The translations under genes were made by a program, and so were the position numbers. Positions 2,404 to 11,531 of a stretch of 40,942 nucleotides of DNA are shown piece by piece. A model generated the notes under the pieces. It was not told where the DNA came from. It ran no database searches and worked only from the letters and a program-made list of their open reading frames with translations. This DNA is from a virus (Duplodnaviria; Heunggongvirae; Uroviricota; Caudoviricetes): positions 1-40,942 of the IMG/VR virus record IMGVR_UViG_2531839450_000010, one strand, 5' to 3'. Positions within the stretch are counted from its first letter, which is position 1; each line of letters opens with the position of its first letter.

Positions 2404-2655
2404 TCACCTTCGCCTGCGTGCCATATATTTGCGCACCGCGCGGCCTGGACAATCTGAAGCTGTTTCTTTCTGCTGCATCAATCTCGCAGCCATGCTCAAA
2501 AATGTCAGGCACAGCCGAAGCCCGGCATACAATAGCGGTTCCAGTGGCCACGTCTCATTGAGCACATATACCGCCATGAAAATCGAGTCAAAAACTATCG
2601 CCGCCAGCGATAACTTCATTGTCGAAAGTCGGCGGAGCTGCCGGAGTTTATTCAT
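2404..2655 (-). CDS. Small membrane protein translationally coupled to the endolysin (possible lysis accessory)
   Basis: ATG at 2655 lies 2 nt after the lyz stop. 83 aa with a hydrophobic segment (LSLAAIVFDSIFMAVYVL) and an Arg-rich C-terminus. Confidence 0.35.
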   Translation of the reverse strand: MNKLRQLRRLSTMKLSLAAIVFDSIFMAVYVLNETWPLEPLLYAGLRLCLTFLSMAARLMQQKETASDCPGRAVRKYMARRRR

Positions 2656-3205
2656 TGACAAGCCCCGTCAGGCAAAGCTGGCGTTCTTTTTCACGGCGAA
2701 TCTTTAAACCTCGCAGGGGCACGCCGTTACTGTTCACGAAATCAGGGAGATGGTTACACATATTCACCCATTCCCCTTTCTGCGCCCACTTGTGGATGGA
2801 CGTTTCTACTCGCATGCCTCGCGCTTTGCTGTAGTAGGTCCGTAAGCTATTGCATCCCATATTGAATGCCGCGCTTGTCATTGCACTGAAGGCATTATCG
2901 GGCATGTCTTTGCCCCGGAAGTGCTGATTAATACAGCGTTCAGCGATCAGGATATTCTTTTCCCAATCAGCGGCGATTTGCTGGTCGGTTTTTCGCACAC
3001 CCGGCGTTACCCCGTGTGTATTACCGATCCCGTCAGTCCATACCCCCGCCGGGCACATGTATGGATCACGTCGGCAACCTTCAGCGTTACCAATCAGCTC
3101 AAGCCCCGCCTGGTTGGTTCGCACATTGCCATTACCCATCACGATGGTAATCATCACCGCGATTGCGCAAATTGCACCGCCTCCTGCGGCTGTTTTTCCC
3201 TTCAT
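2648..3205 (-). CDS. lyz: SAR endolysin (P1 Lyz-type lysozyme)
   Basis: From the internal Met the protein begins MKGKTAAGGGAICAIAVMITIVMGNGNVRT, matching the P1 Lyz signal-arrest-release domain, followed by a lysozyme fold with the Cys residues of the disulfide switch. 185 aa. The track ORF (2648..3304) starts at an upstream alternative codon. Confidence 0.9.
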   Translation of the reverse strand: MKGKTAAGGGAICAIAVMITIVMGNGNVRTNQAGLELIGNAEGCRRDPYMCPAGVWTDGIGNTHGVTPGVRKTDQQIAADWEKNILIAERCINQHFRGKDMPDNAFSAMTSAAFNMGCNSLRTYYSKARGMRVETSIHKWAQKGEWVNMCNHLPDFVNSNGVPLRGLKIRREKERQLCLTGLVNE

Positions 3206-3338
3206 AAAGACCTCATAAGCGAATTTTTTACGCTCCAGGACAAACACCCATTCACAGCCAATACCGACTGACTCGATCCCTTTAGAAGGCACAGGATAAT
3301 GCAAATCACTTGTTAGCTACGTTTCAAAGATATACATT

Positions 3339-3355
3339 ATTGCTCTAATTAATTT
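3339..3355 (+). promoter_or_regulatory. C1 repressor operator-like 17-mer upstream of ssb
   Basis: ATTGCTCTAATTAATTT versus the P1 C1 operator consensus ATTGCTCTAATAAATTT (one mismatch), about 20 bp upstream of the ssb start. Confidence 0.6.
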
Positions 3356-3374
3356 ATTTTATTAGGTAAGATAA

Positions 3375-3863
3375 GTGGCACAACGCGGTGTAAACAAAGT
3401 CATCCTGATTGGTACCCTGGGGCAAGACCCGGAGATCAGGTATATACCAAATGGCGGAGCGGTCGGAAGACTCAGCATCGCAACGAATGAATCATGGCGC
3501 GACAAGCAAACGGGCCAACAGAAAGAGCAAACAGAATGGCATAAAGTCGTTTTGTTCGGAAAACTTGCTGAAATTGCGAGTGAGTATTTACGAAAAGGTT
3601 CTCAGGTCTACATCGAAGGGAAACTTAAAACCCGTAAGTGGACAGATGACGCCGGTGTAGAACGTTACACGACGGAAATTATCGTCAGCCAGGGCGGCAC
3701 CATGCAAATGATCGGCGCTCGCCGCGACGATTCACAATTCTCAAATGGCTGGGGGCAGTCAAACCAACCTCAAAACCACCAGCAATACAGCGGTGGCAGT
3801 AAACCTCAGAGCAACGCCAATAGCGAACCTCCAATGGACTTTGAAGACGATATTCCATTTTGA
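3375..3863 (+). CDS. ssb: Single-stranded DNA-binding protein
   Basis: 162 aa with clear similarity to E. coli SSB across the OB fold ([19 protein letters not shown]...[30 protein letters not shown]) and the acidic tail [14 protein letters not shown] start. Confidence 0.9.
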
Positions 3864-3922
3864 GAGGGCTGAAAGTTGCTCGATTACTTAAAAATAACTT
3901 TACCTAATTGGTGTAAAAAAAT

Positions 3923-3940
3923 GGGCGCAACAAAGCGCCC
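3923..3940 (-). terminator. Terminator-like hairpin downstream of the porin gene
   Basis: GGGCGC-AACAAA-GCGCCC stem-loop followed on the minus strand by a T-run. A second strong hairpin (GAAGAGGCAAT/ATTGCCTCTTC) lies at about 3996..4021. Confidence 0.4.
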
Positions 3941-4096
3941 CAACAATAGAGTTTCAAATTAATAAAAAGGTAATAAATAACATGAAGTTAAATTGAGAAG
4001 AGGCAATTTTATTGCCTCTTCAAAGGTGGCATGAGGGTGCCACCTATATGCGGGCAGTGACATCACTCCCTTCCCGCATATTCTTACCTACCAAAA

Positions 4097-5209
4097 TTAG
4101 AATTGGTAGGTCATACCAACAGCAACGATGTTGTCGGTTGCAACCTCAGATCTTTTGGTAAATTCACTTTCATCAATCAGGTTGATCTTGTAGTCAACGA
4201 AAGCGGACATATTTTTGTTGAAGTAATAAGTCGCACCCAAGTCGATGTATTCAACCAGATCCTGGCTGCCGAACGCACCAATATTTTCACCGCGAGAGTG
4301 CAGATAAGCGATGGACGGACGCAGGCCGAAATCAAACTGGTATTGAGCAACAGCTTCAAAGTTTTTCGCCTTGTTCGCGATAAAGTCATCACCGAAGACA
4401 GTCATATTCTGAGTTTCAGAATAAGTTGCAGCCAGGTAAATGTTATTTGCGTCATATTTCAGGCCAGTAGCCCATACTTCAGCAGTTTTACCAGAAGCAT
4501 TCAGAGGATCCTTTTTAGCATAGGATACCTGCCCATCAGTACGATCAGATTTTGCATAGGTTGCACCAACGCCAAATCCTTCATAATCGTAAGTAGCAGA
4601 CAGACCAAAGCCATCACCATTAGATTCAACTACGTCACGGCCTTTCCAGTTGTTCACTTTTGCAGCACTATCATTTTTACCTTGATACTGCAAAGCAAAG
4701 TTCAGACCATCAACCAGGCCGAAGAAATCATTGTTACGGTAGGTGGCTACGCCAGTAGCACGCTGGGTCATAAATACATCGGTCTGAGTCCAGGTATCTC
4801 CACCAAACTCAGGCAGCACGTCAGTCCAAGCGCCAATATCATAAGCTACACCATAGTTGCGACCATAGTCGATTGAACCATAATCAGCAAAACGGAGGCC
4901 AGCAAATGCAAGACGAGTTTTATCTTTATCAGAGCCCTCAGATTCAGTACGGTTACCTTTAAATTCGTACTCCCACTGACCAAAACCGGTTAACTGGTCA
5001 TTAATCTGAGTTTCACCTTTGAATCCCAGACGAGCATAAGTCTTATCTCCGTCATCACTAGCTGAAGAAGAGAAGTAATGTTCTGCGTTAACTTTGCCGT
5101 ACAGATCCAGTTTATTACCGTCTTTGTTGTAGATTTCAGCTGCTTGCGCAGACATTGCCATCAGGACAGATGCTGCAACCGCAGAGAGTGCCACTGTGTA
5201 TTTTTTCAT
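4097..5209 (-). CDS. Outer-membrane porin, OmpC/OmpF family, closest to phage Lc / NmpC type
   Basis: 370 aa with signal peptide [24 protein letters not shown]-terminal [16 protein letters not shown] and C-terminal aromatic motif ending ...GMTYQF, closely resembling the NmpC/Lc porin sequence as I recall it. Confidence 0.9.
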
Positions 5210-5948
5210 TTTTTTGCCCTTTAGATTGAACTTTTCAGTAGAAAAGAAGTCACTGCGGACAAATGTTTATCTTTTTTGGATTCGTGTTTCAAGTTTTGCA
5301 AATAAAAATCAAGGTATTTTTGTGATCAAAATCACAAATAATAGCCTTGAAAACCCAATGGACTATTAGAAAAAACTCAATTCACAGAATAAAAATTGAC
5401 AAAATAGATCAAAAAACAATCAAAAATAAGCACAAAAGACAAACAATTAAATTATCACAAAAATAATAACCGTCAAAAATAGATAGCCTGTTAATTAACA
5501 GGGCTTTAATGGATGTAGACTTGAAATCTACTTAAAAATTAGAATCAAATTAATTACTGCCGATTGGGTATTAAATTGAATCTATATTGTGAGAGTTAAA
5601 GACGATGTGTTTTAGTTATAAATGTTATTCCCTAAAATGGAGCGGTCTCATCGAATCCTGATTAATAACGAGCTAAGCTAATTCATTTTAGTATGTGTAT
5701 ATCTTTACCCTCTGAATATGCAATAAAGAAGAGATATTAAACAATATGTAGCTTCAGGATTGACTCTGGAAGAATTAAAAGATCGACTAAAGTGTTCAAT
5801 ATGTGGTGAGCGAAACGCAAAAATTAATTTTTTTGATCTAACATATTAGGTAACGGCTTGCTTCCATAACCTAAAGCAAGCCACTACGCGTTTACTTTAA
5901 GTACACAATTAACATATCAGAACAGATTATTTTTGCACAATCAGGGAG
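5210..5948. promoter_or_regulatory. Long AT-rich non-coding region upstream of the porin gene (probable promoter/regulatory region)
   Basis: About 740 bp with no ORF of 60 aa or more. Contains a perfect 16-bp palindrome CCTGTTAATTAACAGG (5487..5502) and a GTAGA/TCTAC inverted repeat (5515..5531). Confidence 0.5.
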
Positions 5949-6260
5949 TTAATATACGATCTGGTCTACATGATCACCAAAATCATCATCGTCGTCGTCA
6001 TCATCGCCACCATCTACTGCTGGCCAATCAACAAACCAGCCAGCGTAAAGATGCAGCGTTCGGAGAACATCACTTGCGGGAGCATCAAGGGTGTTAACGA
6101 ATCCCATATAGCTATTGGGATTTGCCCCAGCTATGGCTTCAGCGATCATGTCCTCGGTAATGTCACCGGAGATAATGCTTAAACGCCCGGAAACTTCTTC
6201 ATTATCATCAAATTCGATAATGGCATCTCCGCCTAATGGCGCTGCGATTTTAATCTGCAT
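5949..6260 (-). CDS. Small highly acidic protein with a poly-Asp tract, last gene of the dar-like operon
   Basis: 103 aa; ATG overlaps the end of the upstream 995-aa gene (translational coupling). Sequence ends ...VDGGDDDDDDDDFGDHVDQIVY. Confidence 0.6.
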   Translation of the reverse strand: MQIKIAAPLGGDAIIEFDDNEEVSGRLSIISGDITEDMIAEAIAGANPNSYMGFVNTLDAPASDVLRTLHLYAGWFVDWPAVDGGDDDDDDDDFGDHVDQIVY

Positions 6261-9237
6261 TATTTAGCTCCTTTGCCACACCTAATAACAGTTCCAGCAA
6301 TCCGTCACCATTCATCAGTGATGCGGCAGCGGCCTCTTTGTCATGATACAACTGAAGAGCCATAGAGAATACTTCCGTTGCTGACGTTTTGGAAATAGTC
6401 GGTGATTTCTGCCGAATTTTCCCGGTGTTACTTACTGAGGCTGGCGGGTATACCTTCGCCATATAAATATTACTCAATCGAGATCTGAAGCACCATTCAG
6501 GCTTGCCACGCCCACCGATATTAACGAAAGATGGCTTATCCCCTTCAACATTGGCCTTCAGGAATGACCGGGCTTTCTCTAACAAACCAGGGTTACTGTA
6601 CTCAAGATGATGACCCAGCTCGTGCCACAGTGCACTTGCATTTTCATCGTTCAAATTGACAGCAACAACACCATTAATATTTGCATATGCCCTTCCCTGG
6701 TGGTGAACCACCTTTGATAAGGTCGAAATTTTACCGCCGGTCAGGCGATAAATATCAGCAAGTTCCTTGCGCAGGTCTATCCCACCATTCTGTCCAGCGC
6801 GGGCTTCTTCCACTTCTTCCGTGATAAAAGAGTCGGCCCACTCAAGAGCTTTTTCTTCAGATACGGATGAGTTGGCGATCGCACTGTTCATGGCAGATAA
6901 CACTTTCTCGTGGACCGAACCCATACTTTGCTGATTCATTTGCCAGCGTGTCTGCGGGTTATATGAGAATCGCTTAAGTAGTTGGTCAAGATGCTCAAGT
7001 TCTTCTTCGCTGACATACTTTTTAGCCTCACCAATAATGCCGGGGAGAATATTGCCGTTAGGATTAAACGCTCGCGAAAGGAAGAGTTTCAGCGCCCCCA
7101 TGCCCTCCGATGCTTCAATATCACCAATAACACGGTTAACAATGGCCGCACTCTTCGGATTAGCATCCGCCAACGCTCTGGCTACGATTTGCAGGGACGA
7201 TACGACCTCACGCTGCATATCAGTCCTGATCTCATCAATAAACTCTGGCGTTATGCCGTGCTCTTTAAGGATATCCCTGCCTTCCGCCGTTACCCCATCG
7301 ATATCACCGACATGTTTATTAACCTGACTTTGCAATGCCTTAAATGCCCTCAGAATTCCACGGGCATCATCAGCTTTACTAACGGCCTTCCTGAATGCTG
7401 GCAAGAAGTCAGAGTTAACCTCATTTTGTTGATCGGCCCACTGAATGGAGGCTTCTTTCATCTCGTCCAGAGTCAAATCACCCAACGCGGTATGGTCTGT
7501 GAATATGAGCGACAACCTCTGAACCATTTCTGCCAATGGTGATGCCGAATGCGCCGCGCTAAGGAATGCTTTCACCCTGGTTGGGCGAATGGAAAACCAG
7601 TCAATAGCTGGTGGCATATCTCCGTTTTTTATCGCCTGCGCTATCTCGTCAAAGCCATCGCGCCCAAGGGAGGATGCGTGATTTAACAAGCCGCGAAGTA
7701 ACGAATTGCTGATACCGAATAATCGGCACCATTTTTTCACGTCGGCAACAGGCATTCGAACAAAATGCGCAAGCACTTGTACAAGCTGTTCATCCTGGGG
7801 ATCTGTGCGGGAAAGCAGCCTGATCAGATGAATAATGTCTTTGATGCCGGATGTCCGATGTAATAGCAAACTGGTATACGGAGCAACACCGTTGTAACTA
7901 CCGCCGGAAACGGACTCGAAAAGACCGCCGGATATCCCTTGCATGCCTTCGTTTTCCAGTTCCTGAGACACCTGGCGAAGGATATCCTGTAACGACACAT
8001 CGCCGCCGCCAAACATATCCCCCAGCGCCTGGCCCTGGTGCTGTAACTCATCATTGATACGTTGAGCCATCAACTTAAAGGCGGTGGCCATACGCTTCGC
8101 GCTACGGTTATTCGCGACGATGAACAACGCGAGTGCTTTCACTTCCGGGGCCATTTCGCTGAACATATCCCCCTGAGCAATAACATCGGTAATATGCTGG
8201 CCTGACTCCTTCGATTGCCTTACCAGGTCTACCGCATCTTTCAATGCCGCCAGCGCCTTTTTATCGAGGCTATCCGCTGTCTCAATGCCATCAACAATAG
8301 TTGTCACAGCCTGCTTGTGCGCTTCTCCTGATAAAGCCTGCATCTGGACAAAATCATTGGCTGCCGCATTAAGCGCCGTCAGAACATTACGCATATCCGG
8401 ATCAGGTTCTTCTGCAACCATCCTTACCAGGCGCGCATCCTTATATGCCTTGGCAAAGATCGCGTTTTGTATACGGTCAACAAGTTGCCGCGTTGGTCGC
8501 CCATCTTCCGTTACAAGGCCAGCCGCCTGTGTGGCACCAACTTGCGTCATAAATCCGCGAATAAACGCGTCATTACTGCGGCTAAGCAGATCTCCGCTTT
8601 CTGACGGGTTAAAAAGCGCCATCATCGCCGGTGTTATGCTGTCGGCATCAACAAAAGCCTTTTCACTGGCTGCCATTTCCTGAAGATCAGAAATATTTGA
8701 GTCCTTGGCAAACTGAACGCGGTCAACCTTGGTTAACCGGCGGCGCACCAGTACCGGAGCCGTCATTGATTCAACCTTTTCAGGTCGTATGCCGAATTCG
8801 GTCGCATGATCAATCAGGTACTCACGATACCGATCCGCATTGCCGTCCTGATAGGCTTTGATGATCCCCATGGTCCGTCCATTACCTGACTCAACGGCAT
8901 TGTCCTCACCAATTATCGGCGCACCATGGCTGGATAAACCGGAATCAGTAAGCTGAGCAGGCCGCAAATCTTTGGATATCTGGTTAACCTGAAGAAGGCT
9001 GGATGCGCGGGTCCGGTCGCGCGGCTGAAGTTCCTGGGGATAGTCAGGATTAATTTTCCCATCCAGAGTATTGGATACCAAAAGAGCTGAGGCATCGACG
9101 ATATCAAACGCTGTTTTTACCTCGTCTCCCTTCGCTGTCACCACATACGAAACCCGCCCATAATCGGGCAGGTTCTTTAGCAGCTCGATCAGCGTTTCTA
9201 TGCTGGTGGCCATTACCACCTGATCGCTTAAGCTCAT
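6250..9237 (-). CDS. ddrB: Large dar-operon protein (P1 DdrB-like)
   Basis: 995-aa ORF directly downstream of the DarA-like and DdrA-like genes in one operon. Name assigned from recalled P1 gene order; no motif verified. Confidence 0.45.
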   Translation of the reverse strand: MSLSDQVVMATSIETLIELLKNLPDYGRVSYVVTAKGDEVKTAFDIVDASALLVSNTLDGKINPDYPQELQPRDRTRASSLLQVNQISKDLRPAQLTDSGLSSHGAPIIGEDNAVESGNGRTMGIIKAYQDGNADRYREYLIDHATEFGIRPEKVESMTAPVLVRRRLTKVDRVQFAKDSNISDLQEMAASEKAFVDADSITPAMMALFNPSESGDLLSRSNDAFIRGFMTQVGATQAAGLVTEDGRPTRQLVDRIQNAIFAKAYKDARLVRMVAEEPDPDMRNVLTALNAAANDFVQMQALSGEAHKQAVTTIVDGIETADSLDKKALAALKDAVDLVRQSKESGQHITDVIAQGDMFSEMAPEVKALALFIVANNRSAKRMATAFKLMAQRINDELQHQGQALGDMFGGGDVSLQDILRQVSQELENEGMQGISGGLFESVSGGSYNGVAPYTSLLLHRTSGIKDIIHLIRLLSRTDPQDEQLVQVLAHFVRMPVADVKKWCRLFGISNSLLRGLLNHASSLGRDGFDEIAQAIKNGDMPPAIDWFSIRPTRVKAFLSAAHSASPLAEMVQRLSLIFTDHTALGDLTLDEMKEASIQWADQQNEVNSDFLPAFRKAVSKADDARGILRAFKALQSQVNKHVGDIDGVTAEGRDILKEHGITPEFIDEIRTDMQREVVSSLQIVARALADANPKSAAIVNRVIGDIEASEGMGALKLFLSRAFNPNGNILPGIIGEAKKYVSEEELEHLDQLLKRFSYNPQTRWQMNQQSMGSVHEKVLSAMNSAIANSSVSEEKALEWADSFITEEVEEARAGQNGGIDLRKELADIYRLTGGKISTLSKVVHHQGRAYANINGVVAVNLNDENASALWHELGHHLEYSNPGLLEKARSFLKANVEGDKPSFVNIGGRGKPEWCFRSRLSNIYMAKVYPPASVSNTGKIRQKSPTISKTSATEVFSMALQLYHDKEAAAASLMNGDGLLELLLGVAKELNNAD

Positions 9238-9249
9238 CCCTGTTACGCC

Positions 9250-9615
9250 TTATGCTGCCTCTTTAATGTTGGCGGCTATCCATGCCGCCGTGTGCTGTTT
9301 AACCTGGTCCAGGTCGATGTATGTGCCAACATATTGACTCAAATCCTGCAAGGTACCGATAAATGCATCGGTGCTCTGATCGACGAATTTATCAGCCAGG
9401 AAATCAGCAACCAGTTTTGGCACACCATCATGTACCGAAGGTTGTTTTTCCTCGCCACTACTGCCGCCGGACACACCGTACCCCATCTGTTGCATGATCT
9501 GGTCAATTTCATCGCTGATATCCAGCAACTCCATGCCACTCGCGGTAGCCGCTTTGGACATCAGAGCATCCAACTTATCGCTGAGATCCATTAACTCAAT
9601 AGCTGATAGTGTCAT
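9250..9615 (-). CDS. ddrA: Small dar-operon protein (P1 DdrA-like)
   Basis: 121 aa, overlaps the DarA-like stop by 4 nt. Assigned by position only. Confidence 0.4.
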   Translation of the reverse strand: MTLSAIELMDLSDKLDALMSKAATASGMELLDISDEIDQIMQQMGYGVSGGSSGEEKQPSVHDGVPKLVADFLADKFVDQSTDAFIGTLQDLSQYVGTYIDLDQVKQHTAAWIAANIKEAA

Positions 9616-11531
9616 GCCGCTACCCCCGCTTTCTGGATTGCTACCAGCAGATCAGCCAGGTGGCGAGCAGCGCCATTAACCAGCTCTTCGTTTTCCTCAA
9701 AACGCCCGGCAGCCTGAAGGGCTGCAATCGCTTCCCGGACATTACCCCGGGCGTTACGGATCTCCGCCATGTCAGTGCTTTGCATATCCATCACGTTATT
9801 GAGATATTCAATGGCTTTATTAGCCTCTGCATCTGCTTCGCTAACCGTTTCATCAGGCTGTGCCGGGGCAGGTTCTGGCTGAGTAATCTCACCGACTTCG
9901 GCCTGCAATGCATTGATCATGCTCTGCACCATTTTCTCGGTGCCAGCGCCCCCCGGATACGCAATATTGGGGAAAGTTTTTTGAAACTGAGTTTTCAGCA
10001 TTACGCGGAACTCGTCTGGTGAGCTGGTGGCCAGCTCCAGAGCTTTTTGTGCATATTTGCCAAACGGACCATTAGTAAGTGTCTTCGCCAAGAAGTCGAA
10101 AGAATCCTCGCGAGGCAATAACTTCAGGTCGTACTCACTCATTTGCTGATCAGAAAGCGGGGTATCGTAAGTAGCAATGCCGTAGCGTGCATATTCATAA
10201 TACGGGTCACCTTCATCAGGGCGCGGCAGAATTGCTTTGTTACCTTCAGGTATTGCGCCAGGGGCCGCCGGACGCATTTGCAGGGCATATCGATATGCAC
10301 CTACAGAGATTTCTGGTTCAGGCGAAGAGCTACCGGTATCCTCCGCTGGTTCAGGTTCGACGTTTTCCGGTTTATGTTCTTCTGGTTGGACCAGGTATTC
10401 CGATACATTACCCGCTTTATAGGCTTTAAACAGCTTGCCGATCGCATCTGCCATGTCCACACCCTGTATGGATTTAGCCTTGATCATGTACACGCTGCCA
10501 TCCGAATCGGTTAACTGGATATACCCTTCACCGTCCTCAATGAATTGCTTCATTGATGCACCATTACTGAGCGTCACTTCCCCGTTCATATGCATACGAT
10601 TTTTGATACTTGCAAGGCGATCCGTCATCGCGCGAGAGTGTCCACCAGTCATCCCCGCAGGAGCAATGGTTTCGCGCCCACCAGTTCGATTGAGCTGATC
10701 AATCTCCGTCTGCAAACGCTCATTCTCTTCATAAAGAGAATCCGCTTCCGATGCAACAGCGTTAATTTTCTGCTCCAGATCTACCTTCTGCCCTTCTACC
10801 GCTGCCACCTGATCCGCGAGGTCGCTCATGGCATCCTCTTTCTGGTCACTGTCAGCCTGTAGTTGGGTTATTTCATCAACCAGGGCTTTTTTCTTCTTCT
10901 GCGCACGCTGGAATTTTGCCGAGTTTTTCTCTGCAAGGTTGGCAAGTTTCATGGTGACCTGCGCCAGCGTCATATCACGTCCACTCATCGGAGCAACGGT
11001 ATGAGTAACGTCTTTTTTATTCAGTAAGAACTGGAAAGCAATCAGCGTATCGCTATTGGTGATCCGGTTTTCCGCTGTCGGGCTATGAAACAGAATGCTG
11101 ATAGTCTGACCATCACTGAGCGGAATAATGGCTGGCAGGACCGGCAGCCCGTTAACGTTACGTGCCCGGCCAATTTCAGCCCCGCCGATCGCGCGTGCAC
11201 CGTTCTGGGCCACATCCCCCGTTTTATCACTCCCCGCAGAGATTCCGGTACCATTCAGCTTCTGGTTCAATGCCCGGACAAATGCCTGCATGGTCCGGTG
11301 TAGCTGCAAACGAGTAGAACTAATCGCCTCCAGTAAATCCGTAGCACACCAGTGGATCGGCGTGTCATAGAAGAACGTAGCCTCGATTTCCTCCAGGGTG
11401 TTGGATTCCGTCATCAGATAGCGGTCCTCACCGGCCATTAATGCGCGATATTCATCATCAGTCACTGGCGGGGGAAGCACGTCAAGCCCAGGTTTGATCG
11501 TCACCCCTTTATTGATATTGAACTGTTCCAT
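9612..11531 (-). CDS. darA: Antirestriction virion protein (P1 DarA-like)
   Basis: 639 aa with a central coiled-coil region; shares a short motif (KNSAKFQ) with the preceding 203-aa protein, consistent with the P1 Hdf (homolog of DarA fragment) relationship. Confidence 0.55.
   Translation of the reverse strand: MEQFNINKGVTIKPGLDVLPPPVTDDEYRALMAGEDRYLMTESNTLEEIEATFFYDTPIHWCATDLLEAISSTRLQLHRTMQAFVRALNQKLNGTGISAGSDKTGDVAQNGARAIGGAEIGRARNVNGLPVLPAIIPLSDGQTISILFHSPTAENRITNSDTLIAFQFLLNKKDVTHTVAPMSGRDMTLAQVTMKLANLAEKNSAKFQRAQKKKKALVDEITQLQADSDQKEDAMSDLADQVAAVEGQKVDLEQKINAVASEADSLYEENERLQTEIDQLNRTGGRETIAPAGMTGGHSRAMTDRLASIKNRMHMNGEVTLSNGASMKQFIEDGEGYIQLTDSDGSVYMIKAKSIQGVDMADAIGKLFKAYKAGNVSEYLVQPEEHKPENVEPEPAEDTGSSSPEPEISVGAYRYALQMRPAAPGAIPEGNKAILPRPDEGDPYYEYARYGIATYDTPLSDQQMSEYDLKLLPREDSFDFLAKTLTNGPFGKYAQKALELATSSPDEFRVMLKTQFQKTFPNIAYPGGAGTEKMVQSMINALQAEVGEITQPEPAPAQPDETVSEADAEANKAIEYLNNVMDMQSTDMAEIRNARGNVREAIAALQAAGRFEENEELVNGAARHLADLLVAIQKAGVAA

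Follow-up and report, generated by a model that had tools for sequence, protein, structure and literature searches.

The question raised by this locus is why a complete outer-membrane porin gene lies in the backbone of a P1/P7-type plasmid prophage, and what it would do there. The prophage is the IMG/VR record IMGVR_UViG_2531839450_000010, which was analysed over its full 40,942 nucleotides (hereafter the window). The porin coding sequence occupies positions 4097–5209 on the minus strand and is followed by a structured 3' untranslated region (UTR) of 182 nt (3915–4096, minus strand). This region is homologous to the one that yields IpeX, a small RNA described as a product of a phage porin transcript that represses OmpC and OmpF (PMC12197685, PMC5069750). 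The best explanation as a whole, to which we assign a probability of roughly 0.6, is that the locus represents the P7-type allele of a mobile "phage porin cassette", which occupies a variable slot in a plasmid prophage of the P1/P7 family, and that the cassette would express both a porin and an IpeX-type RNA that together replace OmpF and OmpC.

The porin gene is a 370-codon open reading frame with an ATG start and a stop codon at 4097–4099. Residues 29–370 match the whole of the Pfam Porin_1 profile (PF00267, profile positions 1–337 of 337) with an E value of 3.9e-148 and 493.8 bits against a cut-off of 23.7, and the score for the NCBIfam "porin OmpC" subfamily is 529 against a cut-off of 484. 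Solved structures of OmpC, Omp36 and OmpK36 align over the entire mature length (E 1e-133 to 1e-136), and when PhoE and OmpF chains are added the alignments remain end-to-end (E 1e-107 to 1e-136). From this homology, the product is predicted to be a 16-stranded beta-barrel trimer with a water-filled channel. The first 23 codons (5141–5209, minus strand) encode a signal peptide with cleavage between AQA and AE, equal in length and almost equal in sequence to the signal peptides annotated in P7 nmpC and PA-2 lc. The mature N-terminus fits the conserved AE(I/V)YNKDGNK pattern; it is identical to that of OmpF and PhoE and differs from that of OmpC (AEVYNKDGNK) only by an Ile/Val change. The L3 constriction-loop motif PEFGGD (as LPEFGGDTW) and the aromatic C-terminus (MTYQF) are both present. 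The reading frame cannot be a chance one, and the complete porin with a signal peptide that the earlier note described is what is found.

The porin is 81.0% identical in amino acid sequence to Lc of the lambdoid phage PA-2 (J02580.1) and 82–84% identical to other lambdoid "NmpC/OmpD" porins (maximum 84.4%). Searches of phages with tblastn give 79.8–82.4% to lambdoid Lc, NmpC and "OmpD" proteins, consistent with the pairwise values. Identity to the K-12 chromosomal porins is 65.2% for PhoE, 64.4% for OmpN, 63.1% for OmpC and 59.9% for OmpF. By these identities the porin belongs to the Lc/NmpC clade. The Lc/NmpC-type label proposed in the earlier note is therefore correct, since 81–84% identity to the lambdoid porins stands against 60–65% to OmpC, OmpF, PhoE and OmpN, and since the signal peptide is close to that of Lc. 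The likeness extends beyond the coding sequence. PA-2 lc and nmpC of the cryptic prophage DLP12/qsr' share with this locus a homologous leader, the position of a CRP site and a structured 3' UTR ending in a terminator. The loop-like regions of the lambdoid porins differ strongly from those of this one. The genomic setting differs too: the lambdoid genes have Q on one side and the lysis genes S/R on the other and are oppositely oriented, whereas this gene is flanked by ssb and hxr. The carrier is different, but the gene family is the same. The NCBI record for the protein is WP_000760982.1, "porin OmpC", in a 90% cluster of 185 members.

Comparison with P1 indicates whether the gene is core or cargo. 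In reference P1 (NC_005856), the slot between ssb and hxr holds isaA, IS1 (insA/insB) and isaB, and no porin. When the locus (2600–6599) is compared with P1 by blastn, homology is restricted to 2600–3863 and 5729–6599. Identity in the flanks is 98.4% as far as the stop codon of ssb, precisely where the left junction falls (3863), and 95.6% from 5729 onwards, where P1 homology restarts inside the 3' end of isaB. The segment between these junctions (3864–5728), as delimited by blastn of the window against P1 together with the P1 annotation, replaces isaA, IS1 and the 5' part of isaB (P1 21540–24023), so that 2484 bp of P1 give way to 1865 bp made up of the porin cassette and an AT-rich spacer.

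The same slot is occupied by a porin in several known relatives. In phage P7 (AF503408.1), the order ssb, porin, hxr-ddrB is the same, and the gene is annotated "nmpC, NmpC precursor" (AAQ07495.1) with a signal peptide. The P7 protein is 95.7% identical to the porin of the window, the 2600–6599 segment is 96.6% identical, and the 3' UTR is identical. Phages JL22 and phi456 carry a porin with 99.7% amino acid identity in a locus that is 99.8% identical throughout. The published mcr-1 plasmid pMCR_SCKP83 (MF510496.1) has a 1113-bp "ompD" between hxr and ssb (PMC5786510), and its product is 99.7% identical. In PLSDB, 131 plasmids match the porin module (99 of them over at least 80% of the module length) and 502 carry a P1-type lyz-ssb backbone, which corresponds to about 20–26% of P1-type plasmids. 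Among complete E. coli genomes, 182 of 5426 match, and most of these matches are plasmid-borne. The porin is therefore accessory cargo and not part of the P1 core, as the earlier note had proposed, but it is a long-known and common allele of this slot. The novelty that the note implied does not hold, because the gene at this position has been annotated in phage P7 for two decades and is also annotated in pMCR_SCKP83.

Two side observations concern the allele and its relatives. The porin of the window differs from the common JL22/phi456 allele by a single residue in the signal peptide, Tyr4 (TAC, 5198–5200) for Ile4; at this codon every other relative examined, P7 and JL22 among them, encodes Ile or Leu. 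The codon is ATC in P7, an AT-to-TA dinucleotide difference, and the Tyr4 protein is on record from one contig only, against 155 contigs for the Ile4 allele. The "OmpN" of Salmonella phage SPF_0923 (ON032529.1, 31855–34719) was considered as a further phage porin cassette and rejected. With its OmpN-like porin in the chromosomal context ydbK-ompN-uspF, this section of the record resembles host DNA.

The porin gene is part of a self-contained cassette (3873–5396, minus strand) that consists of terminator, UTR, coding sequence, promoter and CRP site and is common to chromosomal islands. In an island of E. coli AHM21C2872I that is flanked by insertion sequences (IS), the homology is 93.2% over 1524 bp and spans 3873–5396. 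In an island of E. coli strain C51, it is 79% and spans 3916–5395. The cassette homology in these IS-littered islands ends about 60 bp past the promoter. Beyond it, the AT-rich spacer (5397–5728), recognised by its composition of about 27–34% GC, is 93.7% identical to that of P7; it is confined to the P7-type arrangement, and the chromosomal copies lack it. Neither at 3864/5728 nor at 3873/5396 are there convincing direct or inverted repeats of the kind that end a transposon.

Upstream of the gene, a candidate CRP-binding site with the perfect core TGTGA-N6-TCACA lies at 5321–5336 and is centred 119.5 nt before the ATG. The core has no other match in the window, where 0.04 are expected, and the site aligns with the annotated CRP site of PA-2 (J02580 1363–1383), which lies 119 nt upstream of the lc ATG. 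A putative sigma-70 promoter (5264–5292, minus strand) can be read by eye in a block that is conserved with PA-2 lc, with a -35 element TTGAAA (5287–5292), a spacer of 17 and a -10 element TAAACA (5264–5269). No C1 operator is present near the porin promoter, and the nearest one is Op-ssb (3339–3355). Control of the porin by C1 was considered and rejected on this ground; because Op-ssb is the only C1 operator nearby, nothing suggests that the porin is under control of the prophage repressor. Expression in the lysogen under cAMP-CRP control is plausible given the site and its conserved position.

The 3' UTR comprises three hairpins, an A/U-rich stretch that is unpaired in the centroid fold, and a terminator. 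Its minimum free energy (MFE) is -67.5 kcal/mol, with a z score of -5.73 against shuffles. It aligns with the region downstream of PA-2 lc and DLP12 nmpC with 70% identity over 175 nt. Like the IpeX small RNA of DLP12 and PA-2, it spans the interval from the porin stop codon to a Rho-independent terminator, and the same layout of H1, H2, H3, unpaired stretch and terminator is kept by compensatory changes; the length is 182 nt here and 167 nt there. On the minus strand, the lower stem of H1 (4046–4081) covaries between C-G/G-C in the P7 type and U-A/U-A in the lambdoid type. In H2 (4025–4044), five of the seven pairs change on both sides across lineages. The stem of H3 (3997–4021) is maintained in three different sequence forms. 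The terminator (3915–3940), GGGCGC-UUUGUU-GCGCCC followed by U7, has its stem at 3940–3923 and then reads ATTTTTTT; it is kept across the lineages with one covarying pair.

The 38 distinct UTRs collected fall into three lineages: lambdoid, P7-type and a third type found in the IMG/VR contigs 643348551_000008 and 651053023_000011. All 11 representatives of the three lineages that were folded have the same architecture. RNAalifold on the raw MAFFT alignment shifted the stems of the window by one column and reported many "broken" pairs. Because of this misregistration, only in-register helices were counted and H3 was folded apart. In these helices (21 pairs), 99.1% of the cells are paired, and in 8 of the 21 pairs both partners change. 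Covariation scores 0.331, compared with 0.162 in shuffles, none of which reaches the observed value (0/500). When the partner strand is slid by one to three columns as a control, pairing falls to 28–57%. The UTR is a conserved structured RNA.

Searches of Rfam do not alter this placement. Rfam has no IpeX family against which the UTR could be matched, and the search of the UTR gave no MicF or MicC match. A full-length match to GcvB (RF00022) at 3915–4101 (minus strand) scored 30.5 bits, below the gathering threshold of 42, and was rejected. The likeness is probably one of chance or of shape, since it is sub-threshold and since the homologous UTRs of PA-2 and DLP12 give no such match.

The central stretch of the UTR, between H3 and the terminator, reads in part AACUUCAUGUUAUUUAUUACCUUUUU and contains two overlapping candidate seeds (3969–3986, minus strand) for pairing with host porin mRNAs. 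The first, UUAUUUAUUACC (3969–3980), is complementary to positions -11 to +1 of ompF with 12 Watson-Crick pairs, which extend to 17 bp (-14 to +3) when G.U pairs are allowed. It is identical to nucleotides 17–28 of MicF, the anti-ompF core of that RNA. The second, UUCAUGUUAUU (3976–3986), is a perfect 11-nt complement of positions -6 to +5 of ompC. The z scores of the duplexes formed by the central stretch are -4.0 for ompF and -2.65 for ompC. In the same shuffle tests, the complementarity of the central stretch to phoE, ompN, the lc leader and the leader of the cassette itself does not exceed that of the controls. An earlier comparison by RNAduplex of the whole UTR with 160-nt leaders gave meaningless full-length duplexes and was replaced by these tests on the unpaired stretch. 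Beyond the seed, the UTR is not homologous to MicF or MicC. It sits in the 3' UTR of a porin mRNA, whereas MicF and MicC are free-standing genes divergent from ompC or ompN.

The other two UTR lineages carry seeds of different composition. In the lambdoid IpeX stretch (DLP12/434B, extracted locus L008:4498-4667; PA-2, L004:2590-2760), 15 bp match the ompC leader at -21 to -7, with one G.U pair and over the Shine-Dalgarno sequence, and a further 9 bp match at -31 to -23, while pairing with ompF is weak. The best match of the lambdoid seed is the Shine-Dalgarno region of ompC, and that of the P7-type seed is the Shine-Dalgarno/AUG region of ompF together with the ompC AUG. In the third lineage, the seed AACCUUCUGUUAUUUAUUACCC joins the anti-ompC part of the lambdoid type to the MicF-like core against ompF; the stem sequences differ and the fold is the same. 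In a motif scan, the seed lies 110–114 nt past the porin gene in all 76 viral contigs with enough sequence. Unrelated bacterial genomes give about 45 matches, which is the number expected by chance, and none is associated with a porin; among the matches in genome contigs, only those in Escherichia are real.

The complementarity suggests that the UTR may silence host porins directly. In its broader form, this reading holds that IpeX-type UTRs pair directly with host porin mRNAs in retargeted versions (the ompC Shine-Dalgarno region in the lambdoid type, the ompF core and ompC AUG in the P7 type, both in the third), that all of them spare their own leader, and that P1/P7 prophages would carry a one-transcript device for swapping porins. 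We advance it tentatively, as a proposal with odds clearly below even. The strongest competing account, which falls only somewhat short of an even chance, is that the complementarity is non-functional. It would be a relic of shared ancestry, as an AU-rich anti-leader motif of MicF, MicC and IpeX-like RNAs, or a product of chance, and the UTR would act indirectly or be inactive in the P7 type. A paper of 2023 points this way, in that IpeX is stated there to have no complementarity to ompC and to act indirectly (PMC10690425); the statement also counts against the preferred reading. The shuffle support is also imperfect, as 4 of 500 shuffles of an AU-rich sequence reach each of the two matches. 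The abstract of the 2006 IpeX paper (Castillo-Keller) reportedly agrees that there is no complementarity. The invariance of the seed in the larger set of loci is built in by the search pattern and is not evidence. Set against this account are the two independent seeds, which fall precisely on the initiation regions of both major host porins, and the lambdoid 15 + 9-bp match to ompC (-31 to -7; z -5.0; 0/200 shuffles), which overlaps the MicC site (-30 to -15). The seed motif is also present in all ten loci that were found by porin homology instead of by the seed pattern.

The predicted accessibility of the seed is moderate (mean probability of being unpaired 0.33–0.62) and counts on the side of non-functional complementarity and against the preferred reading. 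What lowers it is possible pairing of the seed with the 5' end of the UTR: in the MFE fold, the first UTR nucleotides, GGUAGGUAAG (4080–4092), next to the stop codon, pair with 3969–3980 (minus strand). It is a speculative extension of the fold that such pairing could keep the seed hidden until processing of the UTR.

Selection on the coding sequence bears on whether the porin works at all. Against six relatives, the ratio of non-synonymous to synonymous substitution rates (dN/dS) of the porin is 0.07–0.16, with an overall value of 0.10. The barrel core has values of 0.03–0.11 and the loop-like variable regions 0.19–0.40. The latter are five indel-rich stretches (residues about 176–200, 226–242, 270–280, 303–320 and 343–358). 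The porin is under purifying selection, and the regional pattern is what a functional porin with pressure acting on its surface should show. Between this porin and P7 NmpC there are 16 substitutions or indels, of which roughly half lie within the loop-like variable regions. The coding sequences are 93.8% identical in nucleotides with a synonymous divergence (dS) of 0.23, and the flanks, made up of ssb and the 3' UTR (3375–4096) and of the leader and promoter (5210–5340), are 99–100% identical (100% for the UTR). This contrast suggests that porin alleles are swapped by recombination through conserved flanks.

A divergent allele is present in the P1-like plasmid pG5 of E. coli G5 (NZ_CP060066.1; extracted locus L011:4467-5564), with 92.8% amino acid identity. 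It lacks 7 residues of a loop-like region and carries a Q149K substitution at a position aligned with a Lys of PhoE. The same locus has a frameshifted ssb, and IS6, IS5 and IS3 elements adjoin the porin promoter.

Under the preferred reading, in which a mobile cassette supplies both porin and IpeX-type RNA, we infer expression in lysogens, CRP control, processing of the UTR, repression of ompF and ompC, and phage resistance. The cassette would be a complete expression unit with a sigma-70 promoter and a cAMP-CRP site and without a C1 operator, and for these reasons it should be expressible in a lysogen when glucose is scarce. In a lysogen without glucose, CRP would activate the cassette. The Lc/NmpC-clade porin would be made and exported to take its place in the outer membrane. 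If the homologous PA-2 lc-ipeX is a guide, one transcript would yield both the porin and an IpeX-type RNA, either as the whole UTR or after processing. The central stretch of the UTR would pair antisense with the Shine-Dalgarno/AUG region of ompF, through the 12-nt MicF core, and with the ompC start codon; the cassette's own leader, which is without these pairing sites, would be spared. OmpF and OmpC synthesis would then fall and the phage porin would take their place. The likely gain to the lysogen would be the loss of OmpC and OmpF as receptors for other phages and colicins, together with altered permeability. P1 and P7 adsorb to the core of lipopolysaccharide, so the porin would not protect against P1 or P7 themselves. 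A role in lysogenic conversion or protection against phages is plausible by homology.

Several observations weigh against the preferred reading. A consensus promoter scan does not call the putative promoter at 5264–5292. The UTR differs from characterised IpeX, to which it is about 70% identical, by an 18-nt insertion and a differently composed seed. Its complete identity to P7 beside a coding sequence with a dS of 0.23 may equally well reflect recombinational swapping of alleles and not constraint. The greater conservation of the UTR is weakened as a proof of constraint because the backbone genes on the flanks match P7 at about 99% identity too. No study of the function of the P1/P7-borne porin copy, and no expression or phenotype data for it, was found in the literature. 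About 330 bp of AT-rich DNA upstream of the gene is of the type that is silenced by H-NS, and the related porins of K-12, nmpC and ompN, are quiescent.

These last points would be accommodated if the cassette were intact but silent in normal hosts, repressed by H-NS in the manner of K-12 nmpC or ompN, and were hitch-hiking in a recombination-tolerant slot without any phenotype in ordinary conditions. The low GC content of the upstream DNA, the uncalled promoter and the missing functional reports would all fit such a passenger, as would the three quarters of P1-like plasmids that have no porin and the disruption of some copies by IS elements. The module is split by ISVsa5 or an IS3-family element in the P1-like plasmids NZ_CP101271.1 and NZ_CP043218.1 of PLSDB, which likewise counts against the preferred reading; nmpC is comparably interrupted by IS5 in DLP12 of K-12 and in phage 434B. 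We nevertheless consider a silent passenger unlikely. A dN/dS of about 0.1 at dS values of up to 1.5–1.9 indicates long-term purifying selection on the protein. The CRP site, leader and 3' UTR are kept across P1-type, lambdoid and chromosomal contexts, and the great majority of copies in PLSDB and in complete E. coli genomes are intact.

Least probable of the alternatives is a purely metabolic gene, in which CRP would drive the porin under carbon limitation for solute uptake or for bile or antibiotic permeability, the UTR would serve as stabiliser and terminator, and protection would be incidental or absent: the CRP site, the pore-lining and L3 residues of the ordinary general-porin kind, and the Q149K of pG5 at the PhoE-Lys position, a hint of selection on channel properties, are in its favour, but it leaves unexplained the perfect 11–12-nt complements of the ompC and ompF initiation regions with none to phoE, ompN or the own leader, the compensatory upkeep of one architecture in three UTR lineages, and the fastest evolution in the loop-like variable regions, as under phage or colicin pressure.

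The surroundings of the cassette are those of a P1/P7 prophage. On one side lies ssb (3375–3863, plus strand), identified from its reading frame and the annotation of relatives, which is convergent with the porin. On the other side, a 109-bp remnant of the 3' end of isaB (5729–5837, plus strand) retains about its last 36 codons; position 5729 aligns to position 4525 of the P1 locus, inside isaB (4028–4633). A hairpin at 5850–5887 lies between the porin side and hxr. The gene hxr ("odaA" in P7; 5949–6260, minus strand) is the last of the string hdf-darA-ddrA-ddrB-hxr and is upstream of and co-directional with the porin. It is preceded by ddrB (6250–9237), ddrA (9250–9615) and darA (9612–11531), all on the minus strand, as is hdf, so that the porin is downstream of the dar genes. 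The position between ssb and the dar operon given in the earlier note agrees with this arrangement. The remaining part of the window that was checked (12000–36900) is ordinary P1/P7 backbone.

For P1-family phage-plasmids, the porin documents a slot whose cargo varies: at 95–100% identity it is present in about a hundred P1-like plasmids that have been sequenced, published carriers of mcr-1 among them. The only element on which experiments might be worthwhile is the IpeX-like UTR with its MicF-like and anti-ompC seeds. If the proposed pairing is true, these plasmids would carry a compact device that provides a new porin and, by way of its own 3' UTR, silences OmpF and OmpC. The pairing would give a simple base-pairing account of IpeX, whose mechanism has so far been described as indirect or unclear. 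Susceptibility to phages and colicins and permeability to drugs would then be altered in the livestock and clinical E. coli that harbour these plasmids.

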